Shown here: piece after piece, positions 6,828 to 37,775 of the stretch
How positions within the stretch are numbered: position 1 is the first letter of the stretch
How the letters are laid out: every line of letters begins with the position of its first letter
From: a virus
Reading direction: 5' to 3' (one strand)
Virus record (IMG/VR): IMGVR_UViG_3300034112_000721
Location: 32,001 to 96,000 of that record
DNA: 64,000 nt
Made by a program: the position numbers and the translations under genes
Notes under the pieces: generated by a model
What the model saw: only the letters and a program-made list of their open reading frames with translations
The model's database searches: none
What the model was told of the DNA's origin: nothing

Positions 6828-9359
6828 TTATTCATAGTAATAAAAAGGATAAACTGTGTCTCCATAAACCATCCCACCTACCTGATATACAGGTCCTCCA
6901 TATCTACTATATCTAGTTTTATATACTAATTCTTGCATATCATCTGGAAGACCACTTGCTTTTAATTGCATTGCATATTCTAAAGCATCTTCAGGTTTTT
7001 CAGGCTCTAATGGTTTACCCTGCTTAAAGATTTGCACTCCAGTTACAGGATCAATTGCATATTGCTCACTTTGAATATTGTATATATCAGCAGCATTTTT
7101 AATACCCTGATTCATCATTGCTGTTTTTAATGCATCTTTTGCATTTAATTCACCTCTATAGAAGTTTTCAGCAGCTCCAACTTTATCAATATACTGATTA
7201 AAAATATTTGCTCTATTTGCAGCTTCACTCATATCAGCTTGATAATTTAATTGTCTTTCCTGATTTTCTATACCAGTATTACCAGCCTGTGTTTGAAGTA
7301 TAGGATTTTGTATTGCACTAATAAGATCACCTTCTAATGAAGCAGCTATAGCTTGTTTTGCTGTAGATGGTGTTGCTGTTTTCCCTATTAAATCTAAATT
7401 TTTGGCAGCTGCCGCTTGTGCTGCTTGAACAGGGGCAAGCCACTCTTGTTTCTGCAAACTTATTTCAGGTGCTCTAGGAACCATTGCTGTAGGGTACTCA
7501 ATTCCAGTTCTTGTTCTCATTGCAGTGGCAAGATTTAACTTATCTTGAGTTGTCCATTCTGGCCAGTATGTTCCTCCCGGAGCCTGTACATCTGGAAACT
7601 GAACTTGTGGTTTTTGTTCCTGTTCACACTCACACTTACCATCTTTTAATGGAACTTCTTTTTCCACACCAGTTATAGGATCAGGACAAAAACATTTCTT
7701 TATTGTAGTTGGTGGAGCAAATTTAACTCTCTGTCCTAATGTAGTATTTGTATTAAATTGATCAATACCTGATACCTGTCCTTTTTTTCCTGCTATTTCT
7801 TCATCACCAACACCAACTTGGAACTGACCATATGGTTTATATTTTTCAGTTCCTAATAAATTTCTATATGCAATATATGCCGCTTGACCTTTAAAGCCAC
7901 TAGAAAAATCTAAATCACCAAGTCCATCAGGATTTTTTTGTATTAATTTATTTGCTGCAGCATTAGTACCAGTACTTCCTGATACATTTTGTTCTGTTTT
8001 AGAAGCATCTAAACCAAAAGCTTCTAGCCTTGCATTTCTTTCTTCTTGCGCTAGTAATTGATCTACAACAGATTTTTTATCAAGCTTTCTTAATTCCGGT
8101 GCATAACCGGTATATAGTTTTTCTCTTTGACTCTTAGTATAGTTTTCTTTATTTTCTATATCTTTTTGATATTGTGCATACAAGTCATTTTGAAAATCAA
8201 CATTTTCTTCTATTGCTCTTTTAGTATTTATAAAATCAATGTATGCTTGTTTCTTACCATTCCATTTTTTCTTAATTACCTCTAAGTCTTCTTTTGTTAA
8301 ATCTGCTTCAGTAATTTGTCCTCCTCCTTCAAATGTATTTAACTTACTTGTACTTCCACCATTTTGCATAATCAATGGCATATTAGTACCACCAATTATA
8401 ATGCCTTCTCTGGCCATAAATGGACCGCTTCCTAGCATTCTTTCTCTTCTTCCTAAATAGTTATTAGGATTACCTCCACCAAGAGAAATTCCATATTGTG
8501 CAAATGGCATTTCATAACCACCAACCGTCATACCATACATAGCCATAGGTGCTTCTTGCATTTGTTCTGGAGACATTTGTTGTGCACTCATCATCTGTTC
8601 TTCCATAGATGGTTGTGCAATTGGTTCTCCAGATGGCATTTGCTGTGGCATTGGTTGCTCTTCCATTTGTTCTTCTACCATTTCTTCTTGTGGCATACCT
8701 TCTTGCGGCATCATTTGTTCTTCTTCACTGATACCTTCTGGCATTAAATCTTCTTCTGTAATTCCATTAGCTTCCATGTATGGCTTAGCAATAACAGGTA
8801 TACCTTGAGGAAAACCTTTTTTAGATTCTTGTGCAAGTGCTAATGCACCAAGTTTCATGACATAATTTTTAATCATCATTTCTGCAGTTTTCTTTTCCAT
8901 TTTATTGGAGTCAGGATCTTGCAAAAGTTTTCTATATTTATTTATGTCATAAGTCTTAGATAATTCTGCTGGCGTATATCCACCTTTTTTAGGTGTTTTA
9001 CCAAACATCTTTAAGATTTCAGGATCAGTTATTTTCATTGACTGTGTGTCACTAAAAATAAATGTGTCATCTGGTAAGTTCATAGGTACTCCACCAGATG
9101 AATGTCTTGGACCTTTTATATTATAGAATGATGGAAATGTAGAACCATCTATATCTCCCACTAATGTTTCTCCACCCTCTGCTTCTATGTTAGCTTCTTC
9201 TCTAGGAACAGCTCCCATAGAATTTCTAACTCTTAAGCTTGGTTTACCAATGTATGCATTATAATCTGCACCACCAAAAGCAGGTACATCATTAGCTAAA
9301 GAACCTTGAATTTGATATCCAGTTCTTGCTCTAGGAAGTTTTTTTAGTTTTTTATCCAT
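6828..9359 (-). CDS. Virion cargo protein with crAss-type 'EAEGGE...GPRHSSGGV...IFSD' domain and xxGG motifs
   Basis: 843-aa ORF; motif I recognise from crAss-like internal proteins; acidic M/Q/E-rich linker; repeated AxYG/xxGG motifs. Confidence 0.6.
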   Translation of the reverse strand: MDKKLKKLPRARTGYQIQGSLANDVPAFGGADYNAYIGKPSLRVRNSMGAVPREEANIEAEGGETLVGDIDGSTFPSFYNIKGPRHSSGGVPMNLPDDTFIFSDTQSMKITDPEILKMFGKTPKKGGYTPAELSKTYDINKYRKLLQDPDSNKMEKKTAEMMIKNYVMKLGALALAQESKKGFPQGIPVIAKPYMEANGITEEDLMPEGISEEEQMMPQEGMPQEEMVEEQMEEQPMPQQMPSGEPIAQPSMEEQMMSAQQMSPEQMQEAPMAMYGMTVGGYEMPFAQYGISLGGGNPNNYLGRRERMLGSGPFMAREGIIIGGTNMPLIMQNGGSTSKLNTFEGGGQITEADLTKEDLEVIKKKWNGKKQAYIDFINTKRAIEENVDFQNDLYAQYQKDIENKENYTKSQREKLYTGYAPELRKLDKKSVVDQLLAQEERNARLEAFGLDASKTEQNVSGSTGTNAAANKLIQKNPDGLGDLDFSSGFKGQAAYIAYRNLLGTEKYKPYGQFQVGVGDEEIAGKKGQVSGIDQFNTNTTLGQRVKFAPPTTIKKCFCPDPITGVEKEVPLKDGKCECEQEQKPQVQFPDVQAPGGTYWPEWTTQDKLNLATAMRTRTGIEYPTAMVPRAPEISLQKQEWLAPVQAAQAAAAKNLDLIGKTATPSTAKQAIAASLEGDLISAIQNPILQTQAGNTGIENQERQLNYQADMSEAANRANIFNQYIDKVGAAENFYRGELNAKDALKTAMMNQGIKNAADIYNIQSEQYAIDPVTGVQIFKQGKPLEPEKPEDALEYAMQLKASGLPDDMQELVYKTRYSRYGGPVYQVGGMVYGDTVYPFYYYE

Positions 9360-9360
9360 C

Positions 9361-12300
9361 TTATTTTTTATTTAAACCAGCTAGTTTTATTAAATTTTGA
9401 AAGTCACTAATATCTATTTTGTGACCACCAGTTGGTGCTTTGGTTTTTTTATTCTTAATAGATCCACCTTTTTTACCTATTACACCTTCAAATCCTTGTT
9501 GATAAACATCTCTACCTGTTCTAGGATCATATCCTCCAGGATTATAATCTTGATAGGCTTTTAATTTTTCACCTCTTGCTATTTCAGTCATTTGAGGAAT
9601 ATATTTATTTACTCTATCATTTCTATAATCTCTAATATCAGCAAGAGTAGCTCCGGCATCCATCAATCCCCTTGAAATATTATCATAGTTAATGGTACCA
9701 GTTCTATTTTCTTTTAATTTTAATTGAGCTTGTGTTGGTAGTTGTTCCATTGTACGCGGACCTTGACCTGCATACATTGGATCATAACATGGACTATTAG
9801 GATCTTTTACTTCATCTTCTGTACAAGGACCTATTTTACCTTGACCAATACCACCTGGTTGCACTATGCTATTTGTAGGATATGATACTGGAGAAAAATT
9901 TATTCCTAGATCAGCCCTTACAAGACCACCATTAGCACGGCTCTGAGCAAAAGGATTTTTCTTTTCTATTTGTCTTGCTTTTTCTGCATATGTAGACATT
10001 ATGTTTTCATAAATTCTTCTTTCCGCAGCATTTTTTGGCTGACCTGAACCTATATATCTTTTTATCTGTTTATTTCTATCATCGTAAAGACTACTTAAAG
10101 CCTTATCATAAAGTTTTCTTGCCTCATCTTCTGAATAATTTTTTGAATAATCAATTTTTGGATTAAATCTATTCTTTAAATTATATATATCACGAGACCA
10201 GTATGCAGATATAGGATCAAATCTTTCTGAAGCAGGATTATATCTTGGCCCAAAGTTATTTGTTGGTTGTTGATTTCTTCTTACTCCTGCTCTTGCTCCT
10301 GCTCTTACTCCTGTTCCTGTTTGATTTTTAATAATCTGTTTTTGAACTTCAGGTGTTTGTTGAGCAAACCAATCTCTTCCTTCCATTGTATTTAAAATAG
10401 AATTTGGATTATTAATTGCTATGTCACTTGAAGAACTACTAGTTAATGGATCTACACCAAATTTATATTCTGTAGGTTGTTCATAATCTGGATTAAATGG
10501 TATCATGCTTCCATCATATGGATTAGAAGAGAAGCTTGAATTATAAAAGTCTTCATCAGCTACAGGATTGCTACCTGGTTGTTGCATGAAAACATCTCCT
10601 TGATTAAATGATCCATAATTTGGAATACCAGAGCCTGAAGTAAATTGGTTATCCGTAAATCTCTGTAAATCAGAGTTTGGTTGTTGAAAGTAATTTTGTG
10701 CTGGCTGAATATTATTAACAACAGGGTTTCCTGCAGTAACTGATGCATTTTCAGTTTCAGGAATTTCTTGTTCTGATTGTGGTTCTTCAGTTTGTGGAAC
10801 TGATGCAGGTTGATTATTTACAGCTGGAGTATTTTGCTGTGGAGTAACCATTTCTTCCTCATCATAATATTCAGGAGAATCTATATTGATAGGCTCTCCT
10901 GCAGCATTAATTACAGTAAGATTTCCTTTTGTTGCTGTAGTAGGATTATTATAAATATCTGCAGTTCTTTGTGGTGTAATATTGTTTGCTGCAGCAGCTC
11001 TTTGTTGTGCTTGAATTGCGGATGTGCTTGTAGGTGCTCCTACTGTAGGCATAGAAGTTCCAGCACCTGGAGTTGTATTTAATACACTTGTAGGAGCTAT
11101 GTTTACAGGTGTTCCAGGTGTACCAGTAACTAGATCAGCACCTTGAGTACGGGTCATACTTGAAACAGGTGTATAAGGACTTTCTACTTTAAGACTTGAT
11201 GTTGGAGTAGTTGGTTGTTGTGTATATGGTCTATCATCTTCTAAAGGTTTTCCAAATCTAATTCTTTGGATAAGATCATTAGCTCCAAGTCTTAAACCTG
11301 AAAGACCCATCCCTTTATATTTATATCCTCTAGTATCTTGTTGACCAGTTGTTCCTGCAGCTGTACCAGATAGCGCAGGTAAACCTGCAGCTATTTGTCC
11401 TGGAGTAGCATAATCTATAGTTGTAATTCTATCTTTATTAAAACCTAAGTTTCTTTCAAACCAATTACCATCTTGTTTTCTTTCTTTACTATATTTTATA
11501 CCGGTAGGAAGCATTCCAGCTTTGGTAATTGCTGCAGCTGTTGCTGCATATTGCAATGGATCACCTACTGGTGAAAATGTAGAAGCCCCTCTAGTAAATG
11601 GTCTATATAGATTAGCAGCAGTTTGAAACATTCCTCTTCCACCAAAAGATCCTGCATATGGATTACCACCAAATTGAGGATACCCCCACACTGGTTGCCA
11701 AGGTCCAGCAGAACCAAAACCACCAGGATAGTATTGTTGTTGTTGTGTTTGAGTTTGTGTATTATATTTCTTTTGTGTAGCTTCTTCTATTTTCTTTCTT
11801 TCTTCTGCTATTGCTTTATCATACTCTTCTTTAGTAGTAATAGGTTTAAAAGTATTAGATTTATCTACTTCACTGTTACCAGTTCCTTGAAACTTGTATA
11901 AACCACCATCTCTAAAATATGAATCTGTTACATCTTTAGAGTTTGTATAATCTAAGTCAGATTGATTTACTGGTGGTTGCAATATATCTGATAAGAATAC
12001 ATTATCTACTTCTGTACCATATACAAATTTTGTTAGATCAGGTCTATTAGGATCTACAAAACCACCTTGTTGAAACCAAGGAGCTATTCCAGGATTTATA
12101 AATGTAGCTCCTATTTTTAAATAATCCCAAAAATCCAGTCCACCATCTGAACTACTAACTGGTTTAGGAGCTGGTTTAGGAGCGGGTTTTGGTGCCGGTG
12201 TAATACCTGACATATTAACTTTACCAGTACTTGAAGTAACTGGTGCAGGTGGTGTCTTTAATGGAATACCCAATCCTTTTTTTGTTTGGGCAGGCTTTAC

Positions 12301-13659
12301 AGAAGTTTTAGTAGTAGATGGAGCATTTGATTTGTTAGCTGCTTTTGCTGCAGCTTCTGATCCCGTAGCTTTTGCTACTTCTTCTGTAGACTTATTATTT
12401 ACCCCTTGTGCTACTGTTTCAGTAACAAGTCTTCCTGGTGTTACTACTCTAGTGTTTTGATTAACACCATACATTCCAGGAAAAGACATTGATGGAAACA
12501 TGGACATTAACATGAGTGGATTAAACTGTATGTCAGCATTTCTTAAACCACCAAGTAATCCAAAATTATATTTTGCAGAAGTTACTCCTGGAGGAGTAAA
12601 TGGCACACCAAACATTTTTCTATTTGCTCTTGCCATTCTACCACCACCAAATAAACCTGGTCTCCGATTCATATACATATTTCTATACATTTGTTCAGCT
12701 TGTTGTCTATAGAAATTTTCTTGCGCCTGGTTTCTAATAGCTCCAACAAAATTATTATTAGTAATTGTTGGTACAGGTTGTGTAGGATTTGTTTCAGTGC
12801 CTTTTACATTAGCTGTATTTGCATCTTTTGTTTCAGTTCCAGCAGCTGGTGTTTGTTGTCCATCTTGAGCTTTTTTAAGTTGTCTGACCATCTTATTTAC
12901 AAATGATCTTTTATTAGGTATGTTTCCACCAATTGCATATTGATTAGCCATATTGTAATCATCTAAATCTAGTACATCATTAAAATTATCAACTGCACCA
13001 CCTATTTGTTTATATGACCAATTACCTCTAACCTCATTAATATCCATATAATTATCTTGCTCTTCTGGTAATTCTTCTTCCTGATCATCTGCTTCTGCTA
13101 CTTCTTCATCATCTTTAATAGCATTAAATTCTAAATCATTTATTAAATTAGAACCACCAATATTAGAATTATCTTCTCCTGCTAATTCAGCATAATAACT
13201 TGCAGAATTATTATCTGTCTCTTTTTGCTCTGGAGCTTCAGTAATTGTTTCTTCTGTTATTTCAAGTCTTTCATTTTGTTGATCTCTTGCTTCCTTTCCA
13301 AACTGAGAAAATATTCCTTCCACTAATTGATTTACATTGGGAAGTATATTTGCAAGTTGCGGATAAGCTTCCTGATATGGCTCATACTTAGCATATATGG
13401 CTTCTTTTACATCATCACTTCCACCACCTCTAGAAATCATTTCTATAATATCTTTAACTATGATATCTTCAAAATTAACTTGTTGCTGTTGTTGTGGTTG
13501 TGGTTGCATACCTTGCATCTGTTGCATAATACCTGCAGTTACAGGAGTAACTCCAGACTCTGCACCCATCTCTGCTTGTCTTAACCACTTAGCGGTTTTA
13601 TTTATATAGCCTCCTTTACCATAAGGATCTTTATAAACTATTACTTTTCTTTTTGCCAT
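9361..13659 (-). CDS. Large low-complexity internal virion protein with multiple xxGG motifs
   Basis: 1432-aa ORF rich in Q/P/T/G/N, with PAPKPAPKPAPKP and motifs YAIGG, FQQGG, FRDGG, KKGG. Confidence 0.55.
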   Translation of the reverse strand: MAKRKVIVYKDPYGKGGYINKTAKWLRQAEMGAESGVTPVTAGIMQQMQGMQPQPQQQQQVNFEDIIVKDIIEMISRGGGSDDVKEAIYAKYEPYQEAYPQLANILPNVNQLVEGIFSQFGKEARDQQNERLEITEETITEAPEQKETDNNSASYYAELAGEDNSNIGGSNLINDLEFNAIKDDEEVAEADDQEEELPEEQDNYMDINEVRGNWSYKQIGGAVDNFNDVLDLDDYNMANQYAIGGNIPNKRSFVNKMVRQLKKAQDGQQTPAAGTETKDANTANVKGTETNPTQPVPTITNNNFVGAIRNQAQENFYRQQAEQMYRNMYMNRRPGLFGGGRMARANRKMFGVPFTPPGVTSAKYNFGLLGGLRNADIQFNPLMLMSMFPSMSFPGMYGVNQNTRVVTPGRLVTETVAQGVNNKSTEEVAKATGSEAAAKAANKSNAPSTTKTSVKPAQTKKGLGIPLKTPPAPVTSSTGKVNMSGITPAPKPAPKPAPKPVSSSDGGLDFWDYLKIGATFINPGIAPWFQQGGFVDPNRPDLTKFVYGTEVDNVFLSDILQPPVNQSDLDYTNSKDVTDSYFRDGGLYKFQGTGNSEVDKSNTFKPITTKEEYDKAIAEERKKIEEATQKKYNTQTQTQQQQYYPGGFGSAGPWQPVWGYPQFGGNPYAGSFGGRGMFQTAANLYRPFTRGASTFSPVGDPLQYAATAAAITKAGMLPTGIKYSKERKQDGNWFERNLGFNKDRITTIDYATPGQIAAGLPALSGTAAGTTGQQDTRGYKYKGMGLSGLRLGANDLIQRIRFGKPLEDDRPYTQQPTTPTSSLKVESPYTPVSSMTRTQGADLVTGTPGTPVNIAPTSVLNTTPGAGTSMPTVGAPTSTSAIQAQQRAAAANNITPQRTADIYNNPTTATKGNLTVINAAGEPINIDSPEYYDEEEMVTPQQNTPAVNNQPASVPQTEEPQSEQEIPETENASVTAGNPVVNNIQPAQNYFQQPNSDLQRFTDNQFTSGSGIPNYGSFNQGDVFMQQPGSNPVADEDFYNSSFSSNPYDGSMIPFNPDYEQPTEYKFGVDPLTSSSSSDIAINNPNSILNTMEGRDWFAQQTPEVQKQIIKNQTGTGVRAGARAGVRRNQQPTNNFGPRYNPASERFDPISAYWSRDIYNLKNRFNPKIDYSKNYSEDEARKLYDKALSSLYDDRNKQIKRYIGSGQPKNAAERRIYENIMSTYAEKARQIEKKNPFAQSRANGGLVRADLGINFSPVSYPTNSIVQPGGIGQGKIGPCTEDEVKDPNSPCYDPMYAGQGPRTMEQLPTQAQLKLKENRTGTINYDNISRGLMDAGATLADIRDYRNDRVNKYIPQMTEIARGEKLKAYQDYNPGGYDPRTGRDVYQQGFEGVIGKKGGSIKNKKTKAPTGGHKIDISDFQNLIKLAGLNKK

Positions 13660-13718
13660 TATACACTATATATTACTAAATATACTAAAAATAAATTTAA
13701 TTAGTAAACCTATTAAGT

Positions 13719-16700
13719 TTAATCTATTTCTTCTACTATCCAGCCACCTTTTCTATACTGATTTATTTCTTTATCAGAAAGATCCATTATCATACCCCCA
13801 TCTTGAAACATTCTTGTGTTACCACCAAATCTTTTTTGCTGCATTGCTGCAGCATAAATGTTATTTATATTTTGAAGACTTGGTTCAATTATCTTAGTAA
13901 AAGTTTTTAGTTGTTCAATTCTTGGATCTACTTGTTCTTCTTCTTTTCTTGGTTGCCAATCATCATTTTGCATGTCTTTGATGATTGTTGTTTTTACAAC
14001 TGTTTTTTCACCAGGTGTTCTTGTTGTACTTGATTCAAACCCAGGTATTGATTGATTTGAAGATCCTACAAGTGGTCTACCAGAAAACTTAGATATTCTG
14101 CGCTTAACATCTCCTACTGTATAGTAACCTTTTTTATCTGCATCAAAAGTTTTATTTTGATTATATAAGGCATCTTGATTTATTCCAAATACTTTAATAC
14201 CGCTTCCACTAGCACCTAATACAAAATCATCTGGTTTTCCAACTGCAGCTGGAAGAAATGTATACATATATAAATCACCAATGTCTTTTGCTTTACCCAC
14301 TACTGGTTTATAAAATTTTTCTACATAATCCAATTGTTCAATAGCAGACATATTTTTTAAAGCTTCAATACTTGTACCTAAACCTTTTGCAGTATTTGGC
14401 ATAAACTGAATTAAGCCTGTTGCATTTGTATAAGGATTAACAGCAGCTGGATTTAACCCAGATTCATGATTCATAATACCAATTAAATCTTCTAGTGATA
14501 CTCCAAGATTATTAGCTACTTGTTGTGCTTTTGCTTGGAAGGCAGGATCCAATCCACTCATCTGCATACCAGTTCTTGCCTTTGTTAAACTTGGTGTAGA
14601 AAAATCTTCTACTATATATCCTTGTTTTACAAGTTTATCAATTTCTTTTTCTGTAAGTTCAGATACTATACCATTATCATTTGTTTCAATTAAACCACCA
14701 GATTTATAGTTTGCTCCATCATTAGTACCATAAGCAGCAGCTCCTACTCCAAGTCCTGTTGGTATAATATATGGTAACATGGATTTATATATATTAGGAT
14801 TAGTCATATCCAAAAGTATATTTCCTACTGCTGATTTCATCCTGTTTGAAAAAGGAACTACCATTTCAAAAGCATTTTCATTTATATTAGGATAAAACTC
14901 ATCACCTATTACAATATCTTTATCTAAGTATTGTTTAACTCCTCTATTTTTCATTTTTTCAGAAATATTTCTATGAAAATTTCGAAGTTGAGGATCTGCC
15001 AAATGTGCTCTAGCTGACTTTGGTATAGATGGATCTATAAAACTACTAGCATATAATGGTGATTTTGCGTTTACATATAAATTATATTGATTAACACCAT
15101 AGTCTTTTGAATACTCTAACGGAGTTACGTAAGTTCCTACTCCTTTATCTCCCTTATCTGTTGTGGAACCAAAATGCTCTTCTTTAAATTCCACAAATTT
15201 ATTTGGAGAACCATGCTTTACTGGTAAAACATTACCTTTTGAGTCTCTTAAAATAATAGGAAAAGCTTTTTTAAAATTACTACTTTGTTGAATTACAAAT
15301 TGTTCAGGAGTTCCTTGAAAAGGTGTACCATCAGCATTTTTCATCCATGTACCAGCTTCTTTATTAGCCTTTTCTATATCATTTAATTCTTGAATAACAT
15401 TAGGATTATTATCAAAGTCTTCTTTATATTTAACCCAGTTTCTCCAATCTATTTCTGATTGAAATTTAGAATTAGGAGAACCTGGTAGTTGTTTAGGAAC
15501 ATCTATTTTTTTATATCCCTTTAACCAGTGTTGTTTATAAATAGTAGCTTCATTTGTTGGAATAAATTTTTCTGGATTTGTATAGACAATATCACCCAAA
15601 TCTTTGCCAGATCCAAAATAAGTATTTAACGGAGTAAATCTTGAATCTTTTGCCGCATTAGAAACTTCTGTCATATAAGGACCTGGATACCCTCTATCCC
15701 AAACATGACCAAAATACTTTCTAGTATCAGATGGAACACCCATTGTATAATAAGTTTCAGGATGTACTATTTTAATATCACTACCTTGAGAACTTGGTCT
15801 AAAATATCCACTTTCTAAAGCATCCTTTAAACCAGCTTCATCTCCAATCATTCTATAAGCGGCTTCAGGATTAGGTTTAAATGCCCAAGGGTTATATTTA
15901 TAAGTATTTTTTAAAGGTGTTTTGGTAGTAATAAACTCTCCTAAATTTGAAATAGCCTTCGGTGCTGCACCAAACATATTAATAACTCCAGGAGACCCTA
16001 AAATACCCAATGCATCTAAACCAACATTTCCTACTGCATCTAATATGTTAGAAGTAGTAGGATTATTATATGCTTTTTCTAAACTCTTTCTAGACTCAGA
16101 ATCAGAATCTGCAAGATTAGCTGCACTTTGTGAACCAAAAATTAAACTTGCAATATTAAATGGAGTTACTGTACCTGCAGTAGCTGTTGTTATTCCTTCT
16201 CCAAGTGGTAGAGCTGTATTTAATGCTGGCCAAATAACATTTTTAGCATATTTAGATCCAGATTTTAGAGCATTACCAACAAGACCTGCAGCACCACCAC
16301 TAGGTCCCATAAAGAACATTTCGGGATATACCATTTGTACAGGAGCATCTCCATAGTTATTCCAAGGACCATTACCAGTAACTTGTCTTCCATTATAATA
16401 ATAAGTTTTTGGTTTAACAGGATTATAAGTAGATTTGTATGCCCTTTCAATATCTGATTCTGCACCAAATATATTTTCATTTATCCAATCTCCAAAATCT
16501 TCTAAATAAGTTTGGTTTTTATTTTTATCTTCAATGTTCATAACCCATTGCTTATATTTAGCATCAGCATCAGGATCTTTTAATTCCATTTTATCTCCAT
16601 CTATGTAAATTATTTTGTTTTTTTCTTCATATGGATCTTTTTTTGATTTGAGATCAATTTCTTTTGCGTCTTGAACAAAATCACGTACAGCAAGATTTAC

Positions 16701-18656
16701 CTCTCCAGGTTTAGTTTTAGGTGCACTAGCTAATTTTTCAACTGCAGCAAGACTTTTTGGTTTTGCTGTTGCTCTAGCAGCACTAACATTACTAGAAGGT
16801 TTAGATTTATTTTCTGATTCAGAGATTGCCTTAGTAATATAATTAGCCATATTACCAAGACCACCAGCAGCACCACTAGCAATTAATCTTGAAAGCTCAG
16901 CAGCTTTTTCTTTTTCTTGAAGTTGTTTTATTGGATTACCTCCTTTATCCATTCTAGTTAATGAAGGTATAGAAATGTCTTCTATTATATATCCACCTTT
17001 TCTGTATTCTTCTATTTGATTATCATCAAGTTCAAGTTCAATATAACTAGGTGCTCCAATCATATTTCTTAAAAAACTCTGTGCATCAGAATCTGCAATT
17101 GAAGGATTTTCAGTTGCTATATTTCTACCATAAACATTTGTAATTGGCCTATAACCAATTTTTCTATCTTCATCTACAGCATGCTGAAATGTTTCATGTG
17201 CAGGTGATTTTAAATATTCTCCTGTATTTTGATTAATACTATATGCATGATAATAACCATCACTCTCTTTGGGTTGATCATAATTAAATTTTTCTGGTCT
17301 TCCCTCAGAATCCCAATAACCCCTTATATCATATGTAGCATCATCTGTTTGAAGATTTTCAGGAAGTGTAGCATAAAATTTTTGAAATTCTATTTCTTCT
17401 TCTGGTGACAGTTTAGTAATACCACCATTTTGTTTCCTTATAAGATTACCTATAGAATGTCCATAGCTTGCTTCTGGTAATTCTACACCATCTTTAAATA
17501 TTTGTCCTGCACTTCCTAATTTATTAATAACAGATTGTTTATTATCTATATGTCTATTTATTCCCAGTTCTTTTATTTTAGCTATCTTAGCTTTATCTGA
17601 TCCTGTTGCAAATATTCTATCTTCAGATATTCCCGCAGCTCTTGCTCTTTCTATCATATCTGGTGTTACTTCAGCTCTAGCAGATATTATATATTTTTCA
17701 TTAGGCATGGATTGAGCCATTTGTAAACCTCTATCTGTGCTAAGTGTATCATCAAAGTCAAATGAAATTATTTCACCTCCTATTTTTTTATATTTTAACT
17801 TTTTAAGATTTTCTAAAATGCTTTCTATTCTTTGTTCTTCTTGTCTCGCCTCTCCTTCTATTGTAGATGGATTCATATACATTCTTTCCTGTGCTAAATT
17901 TAGTATTTTCTCTTCTGGCATATCAGGATTTTCTTGCATAATTTGATCAAAAGCTTGATCAAATTCAACACCTCTTCTATCATAATAAGCACCTATTGCT
18001 TCATCTGATGCAACATATGGATTAGGCCTAAGACCTACTGAACCGTATGTACTCATTTTACCATCCATATTTTGTTTATCATGAAAAAGTTCATGCGCCA
18101 ACCACCAAGGATTATTTATATTTTCTATTGGACTATTTGGATTATATGTTATAGTTCTAAATGCAGAATTATAACCTAATTGATGTTCAGGATTATTAGG
18201 ATCATAATTTTTTATTGGAACATATGTTATACCACCATCTTGAAAATATGGAGAATTAGGATCAAAGATTTTATTCTTTACAGATTTTGATTTTTTAAAT
18301 AACGGGTTTTTTGTAAATAATATATTCCTAGCCATTAAGCTTTTGGAATATTTTTTAGGATACTTTTTACTACCACCTTTCTTAGCTTGTGGTATTTCAT
18401 AAACCATGTCTCCTTCAAACTGATACTCATTACCTGGAGTCATGTATTGTGCATTACCTAAATTATCTATACCCAATAAGTCATCTTCTACTCCTTTCAT
18501 GGTTATCTTTCCAGTAGGTGTAGGTACTGCAGTAGGAAGACCTGGGTAATCCCATTGCCCTCTTTCAGAAACAATAAATCCTTGAGTAAATCTTTTTAAC
18601 TCATTTGGACCACCGGGTAAACCAGCTTTTTCATATTTCTTAAAAGACTTCTTCAT
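13719..18656 (-). CDS. Polyvalent multi-enzyme virion protein: zincin, HAD-like, ART-like and lytic transglycosylase domains
   Basis: 1645 aa; HELFH...EGEA (zincin), SFDFDDTL...IISAR...K...HIDN (HAD), YRMIG and HGSP...GVGTYVT (ART-like), HESGLNPAAVN...ATGLIQFMPNTA (SLT). Confidence 0.7.
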   Translation of the reverse strand: MKKSFKKYEKAGLPGGPNELKRFTQGFIVSERGQWDYPGLPTAVPTPTGKITMKGVEDDLLGIDNLGNAQYMTPGNEYQFEGDMVYEIPQAKKGGSKKYPKKYSKSLMARNILFTKNPLFKKSKSVKNKIFDPNSPYFQDGGITYVPIKNYDPNNPEHQLGYNSAFRTITYNPNSPIENINNPWWLAHELFHDKQNMDGKMSTYGSVGLRPNPYVASDEAIGAYYDRRGVEFDQAFDQIMQENPDMPEEKILNLAQERMYMNPSTIEGEARQEEQRIESILENLKKLKYKKIGGEIISFDFDDTLSTDRGLQMAQSMPNEKYIISARAEVTPDMIERARAAGISEDRIFATGSDKAKIAKIKELGINRHIDNKQSVINKLGSAGQIFKDGVELPEASYGHSIGNLIRKQNGGITKLSPEEEIEFQKFYATLPENLQTDDATYDIRGYWDSEGRPEKFNYDQPKESDGYYHAYSINQNTGEYLKSPAHETFQHAVDEDRKIGYRPITNVYGRNIATENPSIADSDAQSFLRNMIGAPSYIELELDDNQIEEYRKGGYIIEDISIPSLTRMDKGGNPIKQLQEKEKAAELSRLIASGAAGGLGNMANYITKAISESENKSKPSSNVSAARATAKPKSLAAVEKLASAPKTKPGEVNLAVRDFVQDAKEIDLKSKKDPYEEKNKIIYIDGDKMELKDPDADAKYKQWVMNIEDKNKNQTYLEDFGDWINENIFGAESDIERAYKSTYNPVKPKTYYYNGRQVTGNGPWNNYGDAPVQMVYPEMFFMGPSGGAAGLVGNALKSGSKYAKNVIWPALNTALPLGEGITTATAGTVTPFNIASLIFGSQSAANLADSDSESRKSLEKAYNNPTTSNILDAVGNVGLDALGILGSPGVINMFGAAPKAISNLGEFITTKTPLKNTYKYNPWAFKPNPEAAYRMIGDEAGLKDALESGYFRPSSQGSDIKIVHPETYYTMGVPSDTRKYFGHVWDRGYPGPYMTEVSNAAKDSRFTPLNTYFGSGKDLGDIVYTNPEKFIPTNEATIYKQHWLKGYKKIDVPKQLPGSPNSKFQSEIDWRNWVKYKEDFDNNPNVIQELNDIEKANKEAGTWMKNADGTPFQGTPEQFVIQQSSNFKKAFPIILRDSKGNVLPVKHGSPNKFVEFKEEHFGSTTDKGDKGVGTYVTPLEYSKDYGVNQYNLYVNAKSPLYASSFIDPSIPKSARAHLADPQLRNFHRNISEKMKNRGVKQYLDKDIVIGDEFYPNINENAFEMVVPFSNRMKSAVGNILLDMTNPNIYKSMLPYIIPTGLGVGAAAYGTNDGANYKSGGLIETNDNGIVSELTEKEIDKLVKQGYIVEDFSTPSLTKARTGMQMSGLDPAFQAKAQQVANNLGVSLEDLIGIMNHESGLNPAAVNPYTNATGLIQFMPNTAKGLGTSIEALKNMSAIEQLDYVEKFYKPVVGKAKDIGDLYMYTFLPAAVGKPDDFVLGASGSGIKVFGINQDALYNQNKTFDADKKGYYTVGDVKRRISKFSGRPLVGSSNQSIPGFESSTTRTPGEKTVVKTTIIKDMQNDDWQPRKEEEQVDPRIEQLKTFTKIIEPSLQNINNIYAAAMQQKRFGGNTRMFQDGGMIMDLSDKEINQYRKGGWIVEEID

Positions 18657-27516: not shown

Positions 27517-27527
27517 AGTTTAAATTA

Positions 27528-29207: not shown

Positions 29208-29226
29208 ATCTATAATATACTAATTA

Positions 29227-31092: not shown

Positions 31093-31250
31093 TACTTAGT
31101 GTATTTTTGTAGATCTTGTTTATTTTTACCTAATTTAAGTTGTGCTTCATATTTTCCAATACAATTAGAACACACCTGTTGTCCGTTTGATGCTTTTCTT
31201 CTCTGACATCCACAAGACAATTTTGTTTTACAATTTGCACATACTGACAT
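31092..31250 (-). CDS. 52-aa Cys-rich zinc-finger/metallothionein-like protein
   Basis: Translated by hand: MSVCANCKTKLSCGCQRRKASNGQQVCSNCIGKYEAQLKLGKNKQDLQKYTK; TAATG-coupled to the next gene; AACCAATAAT leader. Confidence 0.75.
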   Translation of the reverse strand: MSVCANCKTKLSCGCQRRKASNGQQVCSNCIGKYEAQLKLGKNKQDLQKYTK

Positions 31251-31270
31251 ATTATTGGTTTTTAGTTAGT

Positions 31271-31831
31271 TTAACAATTTGTACAAGACAATTTATTTAA
31301 AAGCTTTAAAGCATAGTTGTATAAAGCCATTCCTTTCTGTGGCTCATGACAAAACTCTACTTTAGATTTTGCAGCTTGAAGATACATAAATATTAATCTA
31401 AGCTCCTCTAGCTTCTGTTGTATTTTAAATGGTGGTTCACATGCTGCTACATCAACATCACAAAGTATTTTGTAATATTTATTTAGGGCATGTGTTACCC
31501 TTAAATGATTATATTCTACATAAACTGTTTCATTAGGTGAAACACTATATTTTATAATATAAATACCATCTGGTAAATTATAATATGAAGTTCCACAGTC
31601 TACAGTTTGTAGTTGTAAATCACAAGCAGTTATGGTAGCAGATCCTGTAGTATAAAAATTTGTAGCATCTATTTGATTAGAATATCCAAATCCTGGAACA
31701 GTAATGTTCAAGGTAGGACATACTACAGGTATTGCAGGATTTGCTGTTTGATACACACTTGTGTCAAGTAATTTAAGAACACATTCATTCATTACTTGAG
31801 GCACCTCTAAACTTAATACATGATTTGCCAT
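31271..31831 (-). CDS. Structural protein (tail hub-like)
   Basis: 186 aa; DTSVY...LNITVPGF...LPDGIYIIKYSVSP; synteny. Confidence 0.5.
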   Translation of the reverse strand: MANHVLSLEVPQVMNECVLKLLDTSVYQTANPAIPVVCPTLNITVPGFGYSNQIDATNFYTTGSATITACDLQLQTVDCGTSYYNLPDGIYIIKYSVSPNETVYVEYNHLRVTHALNKYYKILCDVDVAACEPPFKIQQKLEELRLIFMYLQAAKSKVEFCHEPQKGMALYNYALKLLNKLSCTNC

Positions 31832-31844
31832 AACTATGTTTTAT

Positions 31845-31878
31845 AAAAAAGGGAGAGGAGTATAAACTCTCTCTCCCC
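31845..31878 (-). terminator. Intrinsic terminator after the auxiliary capsid gene
   Basis: GGGAGAGAGAG-TTTATA-CTCCTCTCCC followed by TTTTTT. Confidence 0.8.
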
Positions 31879-31903
31879 TTATATATTTATTAACGTTTAA
31901 CTA

Positions 31904-33547: not shown

Positions 33548-33625
33548 TTTTTTTATAATTTAATTAAACAAAGAATATACTATAATATAGTAAAAAATTT
33601 TATAATAACAAAAAAAGCTAGAAAA

Positions 33626-34255
33626 TTATCCAGCTACTTCTGCCATATCATTATCTAATAGTCTTAAAGCTAATGGATCTGTACCAAATGTTCTTAGTTT
33701 ATCCATCCAAGTTTGCATCTTATCATGCTCTTCAACTTGTTCTTTTAAGTATCCTAAACATAATTCATAAAGAATATGATCCTTATTTGACATTGCAAAA
33801 TCTGCCATTTTTTTAATTTGAGTAGATACTTCTATCTCATGCTCATAAGATAACCTTACAATTTCTGGAAGACTTCCTGAAAAATCTTGTTGTGGTTGAT
33901 CTAATCTTGGAGTTAATGGTTGTACTCCAAATGATAATAAATACTTACGTGCAATATCAGCATGAGTTAATTCTTCATCTGAATACTTTCTCCATAGAGC
34001 AGCAGCACCTTTGAATCCTTTTTCATCTAACCACATTGTCATTGACATATAAATTCTAGAAGAATACTCTTCTTGTTGAATTCTATAATTTAAATAGTCA
34101 ACAGCATTATCTGTAATTAATGGGTTCATAGTAGCTACATCTGGAACTTCTTTTGATGCACCAGAACTTGGTTTATCAATACTAGGAATTCCTGTAGATG
34201 GCGGAAGTTTTACTACACTTGTATCTAATCTTTTTAATAATCTTTTCTGTTCCAT
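33626..34255 (-). CDS. ftn: Ferritin (FtnA-like) with an N-terminal extension
   Basis: Four-helix ferritin pattern QQEEYSSRIY...DEELTHA...EHE...EQVEE with ferroxidase ligands. Confidence 0.9.
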   Translation of the reverse strand: MEQKRLLKRLDTSVVKLPPSTGIPSIDKPSSGASKEVPDVATMNPLITDNAVDYLNYRIQQEEYSSRIYMSMTMWLDEKGFKGAAALWRKYSDEELTHADIARKYLLSFGVQPLTPRLDQPQQDFSGSLPEIVRLSYEHEIEVSTQIKKMADFAMSNKDHILYELCLGYLKEQVEEHDKMQTWMDKLRTFGTDPLALRLLDNDMAEVAG

Positions 34256-34261
34256 TTTATA

Positions 34262-34963
34262 TTAGTTGTTTCTTTCAGCAGTTTCTGTACCTCTAGAGAA
34301 TTGGTTTCCAGATTCAATATCTCCAGCTATAATACTAACTGCCTCATCTATTATTACTTCTATTATATCATCTTTAAATTCACACTCTACATTTGCAGTA
34401 GACTGAACCCCTGTATATGGATCTACACAACCATCAATTTGTATCTTTCTAGGTTGTCTATAGTATGTAAGATCTACTTCAGAGATATTAAAGTCATTAT
34501 TTGTGTAGACATTAATTCTGTCATCTATAAGTGTAGCAAATGTTTCCGCCCATTCAAAACTTGGTTGTTTTAATTTATCTCTTAAAAGTACAGATACATT
34601 ACCTTCTTCTGCAAGATATACTACCATCCTTCTTTTATCACAGCAATCCTTTTGTGCATATACATCTACTCTTTTCCATTGTAAATAATCTTGAGGAATG
34701 CTTAAGAATGAATAGTCTCCTTTATCAGTTAATCCACCAATAGTAGTTTTATAAAGAAGAACTTGTAAGTCATCCTTTCTCCGGGTAGATTGCTCATCAC
34801 CTTCTTTAACAATATTAATACCGTGCAACTGCCTTCTAGACCATTCTACTTGGGCTTTATTAAATGCCTCTACTACCTGCCAACATTCTATGTTGTCGTA
34901 GTCTTGGCTATCTAATTTATTTAGCCTTTGCTTAATCTTTACAGTTATAGTACTATTTAACAT
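34262..34963 (-). CDS. Head-tail ring/adaptor protein
   Basis: 233 aa; LNKLDSQDYDN...FNKAQ...EQSTRRKDDLQVL...YYRQP; synteny. Confidence 0.65.
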   Translation of the reverse strand: MLNSTITVKIKQRLNKLDSQDYDNIECWQVVEAFNKAQVEWSRRQLHGINIVKEGDEQSTRRKDDLQVLLYKTTIGGLTDKGDYSFLSIPQDYLQWKRVDVYAQKDCCDKRRMVVYLAEEGNVSVLLRDKLKQPSFEWAETFATLIDDRINVYTNNDFNISEVDLTYYRQPRKIQIDGCVDPYTGVQSTANVECEFKDDIIEVIIDEAVSIIAGDIESGNQFSRGTETAERNN

Positions 34964-34965
34964 TA

Positions 34966-35460
34966 CTATCTATTTTTAGCAATTTTCTTTAAAGTCTTTG
35001 CAAGAGCTTTTCTCTTAGGAGTACAAGTAGGTTTAGTCATTGGAGTACAATATCCTTTGTGCGCAGGATTAATTGCCTTTTGAATCCACTTCTTATCAGT
35101 TGACCCACCTTTTTTAGCTTTAAACATTGGTTTATCTTCAACAGGTGCTGGGGGCGTAGAAGTTTTTGGAACTCCTCTTAAAACTCCTTTTAAAGTTCTT
35201 GTTTCCTTAGCTCTTTCAGGCTCACCATAATTTTTTTTAACTACTGTTTTATAGTTACCATCTGGAGAATAAAACTTCATCTTTGCTTCTTTTGGTGCTT
35301 TATCACTTAAAGCTCCTCCATTATCAAATTTAGTTCTTGCAGGTTCTCTTTTACCTATAGGAGTATAGCCTTGATCTTTAGCAGATCTAATCTTACCAGG
35401 ATATCCTCTCTGTACTTTTACAGATGCTCCAAACTTTGCAGTAGTCTTTTTAGTTGCCAT
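34966..35460 (-). CDS. Small basic protein (FDNGG, AKKGG; KKWIQKAINP...CTP motif)
   Basis: 164 aa, Lys-rich. Confidence 0.75.
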   Translation of the reverse strand: MATKKTTAKFGASVKVQRGYPGKIRSAKDQGYTPIGKREPARTKFDNGGALSDKAPKEAKMKFYSPDGNYKTVVKKNYGEPERAKETRTLKGVLRGVPKTSTPPAPVEDKPMFKAKKGGSTDKKWIQKAINPAHKGYCTPMTKPTCTPKRKALAKTLKKIAKNR

Positions 35461-35505
35461 GACTTTACTTTTTTACTTTACCTTTATTTCTACAGCTACA
35501 CATGA

Positions 35506-35844
35506 TTATTTCTTTTTAGAGCCACCTTTTTTCATGTAACCCATTTTATTTCTAACAGCTGTTGGTAATTTAGACAATCCAACTTTTCCTGCAGGAACTG
35601 GTTTAAGTGATCCACCAGTAGCCATTTTTTTAACAGCACCACCTTTCTTCATAGTAGGGTTAGTTCCCATTTGATTCTTAGAAATATCTGTGTTACCATT
35701 AGTAGGGCGCATTGGTAGGCCATTTAATGGAATACCGTAGTTATAATCTGTAGCTCCACCTTTAGCCATCTTTTTTACTTTCTTAACAGGACCACCAGCT
35801 TTCATTTTGCCGCAACCCATTTTACAAGTTTTCATAGTTTTCAT
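35506..35844 (-). CDS. Small basic protein with five MxxGG motifs
   Basis: MKAGG, MAKGG, MKKGG, MATGG, MKKGG in 112 aa. Confidence 0.75.
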   Translation of the reverse strand: MKTMKTCKMGCGKMKAGGPVKKVKKMAKGGATDYNYGIPLNGLPMRPTNGNTDISKNQMGTNPTMKKGGAVKKMATGGSLKPVPAGKVGLSKLPTAVRNKMGYMKKGGSKKK

Positions 35845-35862
35845 AGTAATATATATAATAAG

Positions 35863-36252
35863 TTAACAATTCCACTTTCTTAAAGACTTGTTGATTCTAG
35901 AGTTAGGATCATTAGCAGTCTTTGAGCTTGTTAGTTTTTTCTTCATACCAGACATTCTAGCACAAAAGCTTTTTCTTCTATTGGCATCTTTACTTCCAGC
36001 TTTTAGTTTAGAAGGTTTAGTAGTTACTGCTGTCTGAAGTTTACTTCCTGGATTTTCTCTTCTATAAGAAGCAACTCCTTTAGCATTAAGACCTCCTTCT
36101 GGATTCTTACCTTCTTTTCTTTGCCATGCTGGAGTAGAGCCACCTTTCTTCATTTTATGATCTGAGTCTCTCATTATAGAGCCATCAGGCATTACATGAT
36201 AACCTTTTGGTATATTAAGAGCAGCTTTCATTAATTTTGAATTCCTTGCCAT
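35863..36252 (-). CDS. Small basic protein, DUF6321-like
   Basis: AWQRKEGKNPEGGLNAKG...RRKSFCARMSG...SRINKSLRKWNC following MKKGG; N-terminal GYHVMPDG motif. Confidence 0.75.
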   Translation of the reverse strand: MARNSKLMKAALNIPKGYHVMPDGSIMRDSDHKMKKGGSTPAWQRKEGKNPEGGLNAKGVASYRRENPGSKLQTAVTTKPSKLKAGSKDANRRKSFCARMSGMKKKLTSSKTANDPNSRINKSLRKWNC

Positions 36253-36254
36253 GA

Positions 36255-36425
36255 CTATTTTTTTACACAGTTATTATATGTTTTACCATACATCTTTTTA
36301 GTACCTTTCTTTTCATAACCTGGCCAACAACTCTTTGCACTTCCACCAGCTTTCATCTTAGGCTTCTTACCAGCTATCTTCATTGAGATAGCTATTGCTG
36401 CTTGTTGTGCCCTACTTTTTGCCAT
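36255..36425 (-). CDS. 56-aa basic protein (AQQAAIAISMK / MKAGG / CWPGY...NCVKK)
   Basis: Translated by hand: MAKSRAQQAAIAISMKIAGKKPKMKAGGSAKSCWPGYEKKGTKKMYGKTYNNCVKK; fills the gap between neighbouring genes. Confidence 0.8.
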   Translation of the reverse strand: MAKSRAQQAAIAISMKIAGKKPKMKAGGSAKSCWPGYEKKGTKKMYGKTYNNCVKK

Positions 36426-36684
36426 TACTTTTTCCTTTACCTTTATACTTATAATCAGGGTTATCTCTATGCCATTTCTTTGTAGCAGCTACACCCTGCG
36501 CAACTGTTTTGGCTCTACCTATTTTAGTAAGATCAATTGTGTCCCATTGACCTTTATCTTTAGTAGGATGGTTGACCATAATATGACCAACCTTTCCTTC
36601 TCCTTTTTTTGTAGTCTTCTTATATACTACATGTTTTTCACCACCGGCAGTAACTTTTACTTTCTTAGTTTTTGCCTTTGCCAT
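36412..36684 (-). CDS. Small basic protein
   Basis: 90 aa, Lys-rich, in the operon. Confidence 0.7.
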   Translation of the reverse strand: MAKAKTKKVKVTAGGEKHVVYKKTTKKGEGKVGHIMVNHPTKDKGQWDTIDLTKIGRAKTVAQGVAATKKWHRDNPDYKYKGKGKSNGKK

Positions 36685-36686
36685 TA

Positions 36687-36932
36687 TTAAATCTTTTTAC
36701 CAGAAGCAATACTGTTAAATTCTTTTGCTTTCTCAGCTGCCATCTTTTTTACATCTGCCATTAACTTTGCATTCTTTTGTATTTCAGAAGCTCTTTGTAA
36801 TGTAGACATAGCAGATTCAACTTCCCATTTTCTCATTTCTGCTTTGTTACCACCAAAAATAGAAATACCAACTGAAGAATTTGCTTTCTTAGCTGGTGTG
36901 GATTTTTTAGTTGTTGTTCTTTTAATTGCCAT
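36687..36932 (-). CDS. Small basic protein
   Basis: 81 aa; KWEVESAMSTLQRASEIQK helix. Confidence 0.7.
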   Translation of the reverse strand: MAIKRTTTKKSTPAKKANSSVGISIFGGNKAEMRKWEVESAMSTLQRASEIQKNAKLMADVKKMAAEKAKEFNSIASGKKI

Positions 36933-36934
36933 AA

Positions 36935-37201
36935 CTATCTAAATCTTGCTGCCTTTTGGGCTATGCCCTTGGGCTGTTTAACAAATTGTTTTCCTTTACT
37001 ATTACCTTTAGCCTTTGCTTTATTTGTTGCAGCTTTCTCTCCTGCTGATAAAGAACCCCAAGCAGCTTCAGGTAAATATCTTTTTTTACCTTTTGACTTT
37101 ACCTCTTTAGAAGAACCTTTCTTCTTATTTGCATAAGTTCCAGATGTCATCCATTTTTGTGCTGACCAATCTCTTAAACTTTGCTGAGGATCTTTAGCCA
37201 T
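36935..37201 (-). CDS. Small basic protein, C-terminal half of a DUF5872-like family
   Basis: QQSLRDWSAQKW...RYLPEAAW...GKQFVKQP. Confidence 0.7.
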   Translation of the reverse strand: MAKDPQQSLRDWSAQKWMTSGTYANKKKGSSKEVKSKGKKRYLPEAAWGSLSAGEKAATNKAKAKGNSKGKQFVKQPKGIAQKAARFR

Positions 37202-37401
37202 TACTTCTTGGTTTTATAACCACCACCTTTAGACTTATATTCTTTAGCTAAAAGTTGTGCTTTTCTTGCAGACCATTCTCCAGGATCTCCACCCTTAGAA
37301 CCAGCTTTAATTCTTTCAAACAAAGACTTACGCATACCAGGCTTAGTGTAAACACCAGCCTGGTTAACGCGACTTTTAGTAGTAGATTTCTTTAGTGGCA
37401 T
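37201..37401 (-). CDS. Small basic protein, N-terminal half of a DUF5872-like family
   Basis: YTKP...IKAGSKGGDPGEWSARKAQLLAKEYKSKGGGY. Confidence 0.7.
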   Translation of the reverse strand: MPLKKSTTKSRVNQAGVYTKPGMRKSLFERIKAGSKGGDPGEWSARKAQLLAKEYKSKGGGYKTKK

Positions 37402-37775
37402 TATTTCATTTTTTTAGCACCACCTTTTTTCATCATAGAAGCACCATACATAGCTTTAGGAACTGCAGTTTTAGGAGCTTTAGAAGTTCCACCTGAACGT
37501 CCTTTAGCTATTTTAGATGCAGAAACTTTAGCATTCTCTCCAGAGATTACACCTTTAGAGCCAGCTACTTTAGAAGCAGTTACACTTTTATTAGCATTAG
37601 TCATTCCACCAGTTTTCATTTTTTTACCAGCTGTAGCACCTACCGGACTTTTTGCAGCTTTGCCAGCCATAGCACCAAATGTAGCACCTGCTGCACCTCC
37701 AGCAAGTTTACCAGCTTCATAACCATAATTCATGGCTGAAGTTCCTTTTTTAGATTTTTTCTTTGGAGTTAACAT
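37401..37775 (-). CDS. Small basic Ala/Gly/Lys-rich protein with MxxGG motifs
   Basis: MKTGG, AMYG, MKKGG; histone H1-like composition. Confidence 0.7.
   Translation of the reverse strand: MLTPKKKSKKGTSAMNYGYEAGKLAGGAAGATFGAMAGKAAKSPVGATAGKKMKTGGMTNANKSVTASKVAGSKGVISGENAKVSASKIAKGRSGGTSKAPKTAVPKAMYGASMMKKGGAKKMK

Follow-up and report, generated by a model that had tools for sequence, protein, structure and literature searches.

The [Y/F/M]xxGG motif is a five-residue sequence that recurs in proteins encoded in a 64,000-nucleotide stretch of viral DNA (the window), which comprises bases 32001–96000 of the 112.5-kb IMG/VR virus record IMGVR_UViG_3300034112_000721, a record with direct terminal repeats. 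Its anchor residue lies at position −3 relative to the GG pair (P5), as in the motif peptides KKMKKGGS and EEYRKGGYIVEEID. Sequence comparisons identify the motif as a genuine, conserved boundary element of the cargo and Lys-rich proteins of this viral clade. We tentatively favor the view that it acts as an uncut joint or demarcation element, perhaps recognized by a partner, while granting this view slightly less than an even chance. The clade is very abundant in aquatic metagenomes, and the way in which crassviruses package, arrange and eject megadaltons of cargo protein still calls for an explanation (PMC10172136). A boundary mark of five residues predicts where domains start, where recombination swaps payloads, and where cleavage or docking should be sought.

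The source genome is that of an uncultured, aquatic crAss-like podovirus, as indicated by PHROG families and by the match of its 1817-amino-acid (aa) protein to Pfam crAss_MUZ; PHROG families also name the portal, large terminase and major capsid protein. The muzzle gene is followed by genes for proteins of 1645, 1432 and 843 aa, and then of 1012, 2870, 4143 and 1123 aa. Judged by gene order, these seven proteins are positional counterparts of crAss001 cargo proteins C1/C2 and of the RNA polymerase (RNAP)-associated giants. Downstream of the capsid gene and a 341-aa gene lie nine small open reading frames (ORFs) of 56–164 aa, with Lys and Arg making up 21–28% of residues.

Enrichment and conservation of the motif

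An earlier note on this DNA had quoted pentapeptides from the cargo and small basic proteins, every one of which was found in its gene. In these two sets, and in these only, [Y/F/M]xxGG is 5- to 9-fold over-represented. Window counts of the motif were compared with 5000 composition-preserving shuffles per protein set: the small basic proteins contain 10 copies versus 1.16 expected and the three cargo proteins 16 versus 3.40, numbers reached in 0/5000 shuffles in either case, while all other proteins of the genome contain 14 versus 13.65 expected and show no excess. The excess is confined to the three post-muzzle mosaic cargo proteins and the nine post-capsid Lys-rich proteins. Y/F/M occupies −3 in 10/18 GG sites of the small proteins (56%; background 0.09, p = 8e-7) and in 15/43 sites of the cargo proteins (35%; p = 4e-5), compared with 9/91 (10%) in the rest of the genome. 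Nor are the giants enriched: Y/F/M occupies −3 in 3/29 sites of the four RNAP-like proteins. Enrichment is likewise absent from terminase (0 motifs) and portal (1), and from the acidic 413-aa putative scaffold protein (0), as had been claimed.

The excess might be suspected to arise by chance or from a composition rich in Gly and Lys, given that the proteins are Gly-rich and that the motif was defined post hoc, after inspection of the data. This explanation is extremely improbable. Composition-preserving shuffles do not reproduce the counts, Met at −3 survives Bonferroni correction (1.5e-4) in an unbiased scan of 200 residue-by-position tests, and the pattern is replicated in independent relatives; these results already refute it.

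The anchor class had been proposed as [YFMA], of which Y/F/M stands; Ala does not, adding 1–2 sites with barely any enrichment. The AxxG variant proposed alongside occurs at chance (observed versus expected: 10 versus 11.5, 27 versus 26.7, and 110 versus 109.7) and was rejected as part of the code. One ARTG is a positional variant of the motif within a junction module of the 1645-aa protein.

Relatives were located with the major capsid protein as the anchor. A related capsid gene occurs on more than 597 viral contigs, with at least 89% identity to the query in the 80 best, and 45 related loci span the stretch after the capsid gene. The array in this stretch, which sits between the 341-aa gene and a 233-aa gene, is hypervariable: gene content differs in nearly all 45 loci, and all of the proteins are basic (20–30% Lys+Arg). 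Across 581 distinct GG contexts from the 45 loci, position −3 holds Met 197 times, Tyr 51 times and Phe 29 times (backgrounds 3.9%, 2.5% and 1.4%), with Leu (17), Ile (8) and Val (12) rare. The consensus of the small basic proteins in these loci is KK-[MYF]-[KQA]-[KT]-GG-[SAT]-[TVK]-K.

The cargo proteins show the same conservation. Two to four post-muzzle proteins are motif-enriched in each of 10 relatives, and no enrichment was found in the muzzle, the 1012-aa homologue or the RNAP-like proteins of these 10 genomes. In the 843-aa protein, MYGMTVGGYEMPFA and the C-terminal YQVGGMVYGD site are kept in relatives. A profile search with the junction module described below retrieved 781 representative clusters of proteins of ~100–2500 aa, mostly with 2–5 copies each; among the best 150 of these 781 family representatives, Y/F/M occupies −3 in 706/1444 GG sites (p about 1e-292). 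No such pattern was found in crAss001 or in Leptolyngbya phage Lbo-JY46, the nearest cultured capsid relative (28% identity), and the motif was rejected as a general feature of Crassvirales. A literature search covering the pentapeptides, DUF6321 and di-glycine phage maturation returned nothing on the motif.

Codon pairs for GG at motif sites match the rest of the genome, and GGAGG occurs in 4/25 motif sites versus 31/156 others. This ordinary codon use shows that selection acts on the protein and not on the DNA. A nucleotide-level signal, in the form of internal Shine-Dalgarno or start sites, was rejected on these ordinary codons, on gene leaders that are A/T-rich and lack Shine-Dalgarno sequences in this genome, and on the alternation of Tyr and Phe with Met.

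The motif at module boundaries

Many of the cargo-protein sites form part of a junction with a defined layout: hxxGG, a strand (YIELEL), a T/SDxEIxx helix, hxxGG, an acidic strand (YIVEDIS), IPSLTR and a further hxxGG. The C-terminal version of this junction stops after ...YRKGGWIVEEID. Spacings between motifs in the cargo family peak at 17–19 and 13 residues, and 110/150 family representatives terminate in the conserved acidic seven-residue strand, with 0/150 ending in GG. Natural chain breaks in cargo proteins fall 7–8 residues past GG or ~30 residues before it, not at GG. No significant match to the junction module was found among solved structures or in Pfam. One relative gave a sub-threshold match to DUF7210, but the genomes did not reproduce it, and that identity was rejected.

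Homology between the 1645-aa protein and other family members breaks at residues 142–144 (65 high-scoring segment pairs) and 572–574 (33 pairs), and both break points are exactly the GG of FQDGG and MDKGG. In two related loci, L087 and L088, the stretch from FQDGG to KQNGG is missing, and FQDGG directly precedes ITKLSPEEEIEF, which follows KQNGG in the window protein. The lost stretch is the one that holds the HELFH and DFDDT motifs. The HAD-like DFDDT motif or domain starts 2–6 residues past a GG.

A similar arrangement is found in the small basic proteins. Stand-alone DUF6321 proteins (90–95 aa) contain the motif in 0/15 cases and fused forms in 11/11, always four residues ahead of the anchor Trp and regardless of which module lies upstream; in the alignment, the stand-alone start MAKSPAW matches [M/Y]KxGG-STPAW of the fused forms. 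In one relative, the adjacent 90-aa, 56-aa and DUF6321 genes of the window are merged into a single 257-aa protein. Motif frequency rises with ORF length, from 10% at 30–60 aa to 91% above 220 aa, and N-termini of stand-alone ORFs fall 1–3 residues past GG in 17% of cases, three times the 5% of random placement. Leader-like N-terminal pieces of about 14–38 residues terminate in the motif, which also occurs 4–7 residues from a C-terminus and, in the 112-aa protein, in runs with copies 9–12 residues apart.

AlphaFold2 modeling of the junction from an 11-sequence alignment predicts a helix (modeled residues 18–26) that ends at the GG of YRKGG, with a predicted local distance difference test score (pLDDT) of 82–88; MDKGG downstream is modeled at low confidence. 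In the 129-aa protein model, the MKKGG segment (pLDDT <50) connects a small hairpin to the helical DUF6321 domain, and for the 112-aa protein the Atlas model predicts disorder (pLDDT 0.37). One class of motif is thus a predicted helix cap before the conserved terminal strand of a small fold. Together, the junction and 129-aa models suggest that the motif serves both as a turn within a mini-fold and as part of exposed linkers.

The two protein sets might instead carry unrelated look-alikes, with KK-M-KK-GG being a DNA-binding or DNA-condensing repeat of the Lys-rich proteins and aromatic-xx-GG a structural turn of the cargo. The flanks indeed differ, being basic with a small P1' residue in the small set versus an acidic or hydrophobic P1' and a following strand in the cargo; moreover, the small proteins are disordered and Lys/Arg-rich, and the same mini-modules occur in unrelated marine phages. 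However, MQDGG, YQDGG, YKKGG, MKKGG and FKKGG are all found in both sets within one clade, the motif lies at module boundaries in both, and its co-restriction to two sets in one genome would be a coincidence. Two unrelated look-alikes are quite improbable.

Joint, cleavage site or docking signal

If the motif is an uncut joint, it would close conserved connector pieces, with the next exchangeable module starting right there. The anchor residue and the Gly-Gly turn would form a boundary or hinge that permits module swapping by recombination and independent folding, and that may allow modules to be docked or threaded in sequence as cargo exits through the tail. In the models, one copy of the motif sits at the end of a helix as its cap, and from there the chain turns into the acidic strand that ends the junction mini-fold of roughly 30 residues. 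Recognition by a partner is possible. That no protease family was detected also counts for an uncut joint.

The closest functional parallel is found in polymorphic toxins, where VENN in CdiA and DPxGL in Rhs proteins serve as demarcation motifs. There, too, a short motif ends the conserved part, a variable payload starts at once and breakpoints map on the motif. The proteins and the motif are different, however, and here many copies occur per protein, including in tiny basic proteins.

Several points weigh against an uncut joint. The chief one is the strict anchor, Met, Tyr or Phe and almost never Leu, Ile or Val, which a plain hinge leaves unexplained and which looks like recognition by a protein pocket. 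A hinge also does not explain the motifs close to C-termini, the closely spaced runs in the 112-aa protein, or why just two protein sets use the motif. The boundary statistics come from related, non-independent sequences, and the models are short, with shallow alignments and only moderate confidence. Finally, the cargo and Lys-rich proteins are probably virion-internal, a location inferred from gene position and from crAss001 (PMC10172136).

The earlier note had interpreted the motif as a di-glycine code for maturation. A shared, conserved motif that is restricted to probable internal and ejected proteins and lies at module boundaries is borne out, but the cleavage part is unsupported. Cleavage after GG by an unrecognized phage or host protease would free payload domains and small basic peptides, much as adenovirus protease acts on core-protein precursors and T4 gp21 on capsid-targeting sequences. 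In internal proteins of viruses, a conserved xGG motif at a boundary usually marks a protease site. Consistent with this, the motif lies exactly at module boundaries, stand-alone genes start at the predicted new N-terminus, and the leader-like N-terminal pieces end in it; P5, P2 and P1 are conserved, P1' is small in the basic proteins, and the motif of the 129-aa protein lies within a disordered linker. Polyvalent proteins, a class found in phages and conjugative elements, have also been proposed to be processed (Iyer et al. 2017, PMC5512222).

Other observations argue against cleavage. Protease families were scanned in this genome and four of its relatives (five genomes in all, four at least 99% and one 91% complete), with no match to Peptidase_C5 (adenain) or Peptidase_C48 (Ulp-like) at E<=0.1, although a very divergent fold could escape. 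No C39 (PF03412), S78, ClpP or MPTase-PolyVal (PF18818) domain was detected in the five genomes, and S77 gave no match in them, a weak test given that the S77 control gave no signal anywhere. The two candidate proteases named in the earlier note are both missing from complete relatives: of five relatives with complete or near-complete genomes, three have the 147-aa HETMH protein and two lack it, and one has the HELFH zincin module of the 1645-aa protein. Moreover, the B-site is a predicted helix cap, where a cut would just remove the conserved seven-residue strand; no family representative of the 150 ends in GG, natural chain breaks of the cargo lie elsewhere, and the two protein sets do not have the same P1'. 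T7-like pelagiphages encode similar mini-proteins with the motif, and HMO-2011-type podoviruses related ones. To our knowledge, no head protease is known for the T7-like pelagiphages. On balance, cleavage after GG is possible but rather unlikely.

The HETMH protein and the HELFH module, neither conserved nor matching a family, were rejected as the dedicated protease. A role as clade-specific protease was also rejected for the 341-aa gene that separates the capsid gene from the array. This gene falls in no family, and its weak resemblance to crAss001 gp33 indicates that it is not clade-specific. The gene neighboring the capsid gene is matched by 3830 protein clusters, a further sign of the abundance of the clade. 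Ser or Thr makes up only about 45% of P1' residues, and self-cleavage at GG-S/T was dropped on that ground.

An undescribed Gly-Gly-specific maturation system, in which a protease of unrecognized fold cuts [M/Y/F]xxGG, is slightly less probable still and should be regarded as unlikely. If it existed, payload enzymes would be freed from connector modules and Lys-rich precursors chopped into small DNA-associated peptides. It would then be a tailed-phage counterpart of adenovirus core-protein processing and, among tailed phages, the first maturation code based on Gly-Gly.

Several known systems resemble parts of this picture. Adenain, a clan CE protease, cuts basic core-protein precursors at (M/I/L)XGG-X, and African swine fever virus (ASFV) pS273R and the mavirus cysteine protease cut at GG-X (PMC4246237, PMC6048507). 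As in these viruses, a hydrophobic residue followed by Gly-Gly recurs here in Lys/Arg-rich structural-module and other probable internal proteins, including near termini. Unlike adenain sites, the anchor is P5 rather than P4 and Met/Tyr/Phe rather than Met/Ile/Leu, a clan CE domain is undetected, and cleavage is a conjecture.

In phage T4, the internal proteins IPI–III are encoded at the variable ip locus, and their capsid-targeting sequence is removed by gp21 at L/I-x-E. Shared features are a hypervariable locus of small basic proteins by the head genes, a short conserved signal joined to unrelated payloads, and leader-like N-terminal pieces. The motif is different here, however, with many copies per protein and C-terminal ones; S77 was not found, and stand-alone modules lack the motif.

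Double-glycine leaders (LSxxELxxIxGG), with hydrophobic residues at −4, −7 and −12, are cut by C39 peptidases. The junction reads LSDKEINQYRKGG, which similarly suggests an amphipathic helix ending in GG, with hydrophobic spacings of 5 and 3. It differs in having one extra residue before GG, which shifts the register, in lacking a detectable C39 domain in the genome, and in being internal or C-terminal.

Like polyvalent proteins, the 1645-aa protein strings together unrelated enzyme domains (SLT, ART-PolyVal-like, HExxH and HAD-like) that are presumably delivered with the DNA. SLT scores 34.9 bits and ART-PolyVal 28.9 bits, below its 31.2 cut-off, and the other two are recognized from the HELFH and DFDDT motifs. 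However, neither a defined junction module nor a motif used as punctuation has been described for this class, and MPTase-PolyVal was not detected here.

The crAss001 cargo proteins C1/C2 (gp45 and gp46) are present in virions by mass spectrometry and cryo-EM, and are thought to be ejected partly unfolded (PMC10172136). The genes studied here likewise lie directly downstream of the muzzle, in the same order in relatives, and short segments of their products would be expected to dock in the portal and tail. In contrast, [YFM]xxGG is not enriched in gp45 or gp46, a Lys-rich array is lacking in crAss001, and no Pfam family is common to the two sets of cargo proteins.

The other half of the earlier proposal, a capsid-loading tag, is weakened by the lack of the motif in the giant RNAP-like proteins and in stand-alone single modules such as the 90–95-aa DUF6321 proteins; a universal packaging tag is unlikely for this reason. 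A narrower docking or packaging signal would be a peptide that binds a repeated site in the procapsid, portal, tail barrel, scaffold or acidic junction fold and tethers many copies. Such a role would account for the restriction of the motif to probable internal proteins, its multivalency, its occurrence at extreme C-termini, and a specific Met/Tyr/Phe anchor that suggests a binding pocket. In crAss001, the portal, ring proteins and muzzle have been observed with short cargo segments bound to them (PMC10172136). However, the motif is missing from stand-alone modules and from most of the short mini-proteins, and also from the giant RNAP-like proteins, whose crAss001 counterparts are packaged; the crAss001 cargo proteins are not motif-enriched, and no partner has been identified. 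Docking through the motif is improbable, more so than cleavage.

A different kind of contact is hinted at by the ends of consecutive cargo proteins. The acidic C-terminal strand WIVEEID of the 1645-aa protein (13722–13808, − strand) precedes the basic N-terminal strand MAKRKVIVYK of the next (13560–13659, − strand), and this pairing of an acidic end with a basic start recurs in relatives. The arrangement would fit end-to-end docking of consecutive cargo proteins.

Gene features and neighboring observations

Table 1. Motif-bearing genes, junction modules and context genes, with positions in the window.
Feature	Position	Strand	Remarks
Cargo/polyvalent protein, 1645 aa	13719..18656	-	HExxH, HAD-like DFDDT, ART-PolyVal (below cut-off), SLT; 13 GG sites, 6 of them [YFM]xxGG
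Cargo protein, 1432 aa	9361..13659	-	18 GG sites, 6 of them [YFM]xxGG; basic N-terminus MAKRKVIVYKDPYGKGGY
Cargo protein, 843 aa	6828..9359	-	12 GG sites, 3 of them [YFM]xxGG
Internal junction module, residues 546-573 of 1645-aa protein	16938..17021	-	YIELELDDNQIEE-YRKGG-YIIEDISIPSLTR-MDKGG
Variant junction module, residues 1317-1362 of 1645-aa protein	14571..14708	-	YKSGG...SELTEKEIDKLVKQGYIVEDFSTPSLTK-ARTG; directly ahead of SLT domain
C-terminal junction module, 1645-aa protein	13722..13808	-	FQDGG-MIMDLSDKEINQ-YRKGG-WIVEEID, then stop codon
Lys-rich protein, 124 aa	37401..37775	-	MKTGG and MKKGG, the latter in the last 6 residues at the C-terminus
Lys-rich mini-protein, 66 aa	37201..37401	-	No [YFM]xxGG; common to HMO-2011-type podophages
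Lys-rich mini-protein, 88 aa	36935..37201	-	No motif; resembles HMO-2011 gp59
Basic mini-protein, 81 aa	36687..36932	-	SIFGG only
Lys-rich mini-protein, 90 aa	36412..36684	-	Fused upstream of DUF6321 in relatives
56-aa ORF	36255..36425	-	Leader-like module AISMKIAGKKPK-MKAGG-S; under 60-aa list threshold
129-aa protein	35863..36252	-	Hairpin module, MKKGG, DUF6321 domain (Pfam PF19846)
Lys/Gly-rich protein, 112 aa	35506..35844	-	Five MxxGG motifs; predicted disordered
Lys-rich protein, 164 aa	34966..35460	-	FDNGG and AKKGG
Muzzle protein, 1817 aa	18656..24109	-	Pfam crAss_MUZ; context; no motif enrichment
Major capsid protein	38890..40509	-	Context; anchor for finding relatives
HELFH zincin-like module of 1645-aa protein	17787..18230	-	Peptidase_M91 hint only weak, E=0.018
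HETMH (HExxH) protein, 147 aa	58887..59330	-	No Pfam or PHROG family

Several of the mini-modules have counterparts in unrelated marine phage groups. DUF6321 (35863–36252) is 55–70% identical to the C-terminus of the "T4-GC119 structural protein" of cyanomyoviruses, and the 66-aa protein (37201–37401) matches proteins of HMO-2011-type, Roseobacter, Pelagibacter and Methylophilales phages at 64–79% identity. The resemblance of the 88-aa protein (36935–37201) to HMO-2011 gp59 was noted by eye. Mini-modules common to such unrelated groups suggest that tiny basic modules are exchanged across hosts. A tblastn search with the 112-aa and 164-aa proteins found no match in cultured phages.

The hairpin of the 129-aa protein (residues 15–34; 36150–36210, − strand), PKGYHVMPDGSIM, resembles the N-terminus of PSSM4_160 of Prochlorococcus phage P-SSM4 (PKGYKVMHDGYLV). 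It is rich in His and Met and may therefore bind a metal. The neighboring 56-aa ORF (36255–36425, − strand) shares 14 bases with the end of the 90-aa gene. Since it is kept in 17 related loci and is fused to neighboring modules in others, the ORF probably represents a real gene.

The virion gene module also contains a gene for a ferritin-like protein (33626–34255, − strand; Pfam Ferritin, 3.5e-26) with a 47-residue N-terminal extension, which has a homologue at that place in 1/80 related loci. A ferritin beside HK97-fold capsid genes recalls encapsulin cargo.

The giant RNAP-like proteins (window 3–3740 and upstream, genome 11324–35740) have terminal cysteines, reading ...NKKIC, MAITC...NKNLC and MSC... 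Outside the window, a 392-aa protein (genome 1821–2999, + strand) contains an HELLHIAFGH motif, suggesting a possible metallopeptidase. Among the probable tail-fiber genes, a 601-aa protein (54745–56550, − strand) is 20% glycine, with Gly runs of up to seven and very few charged residues.

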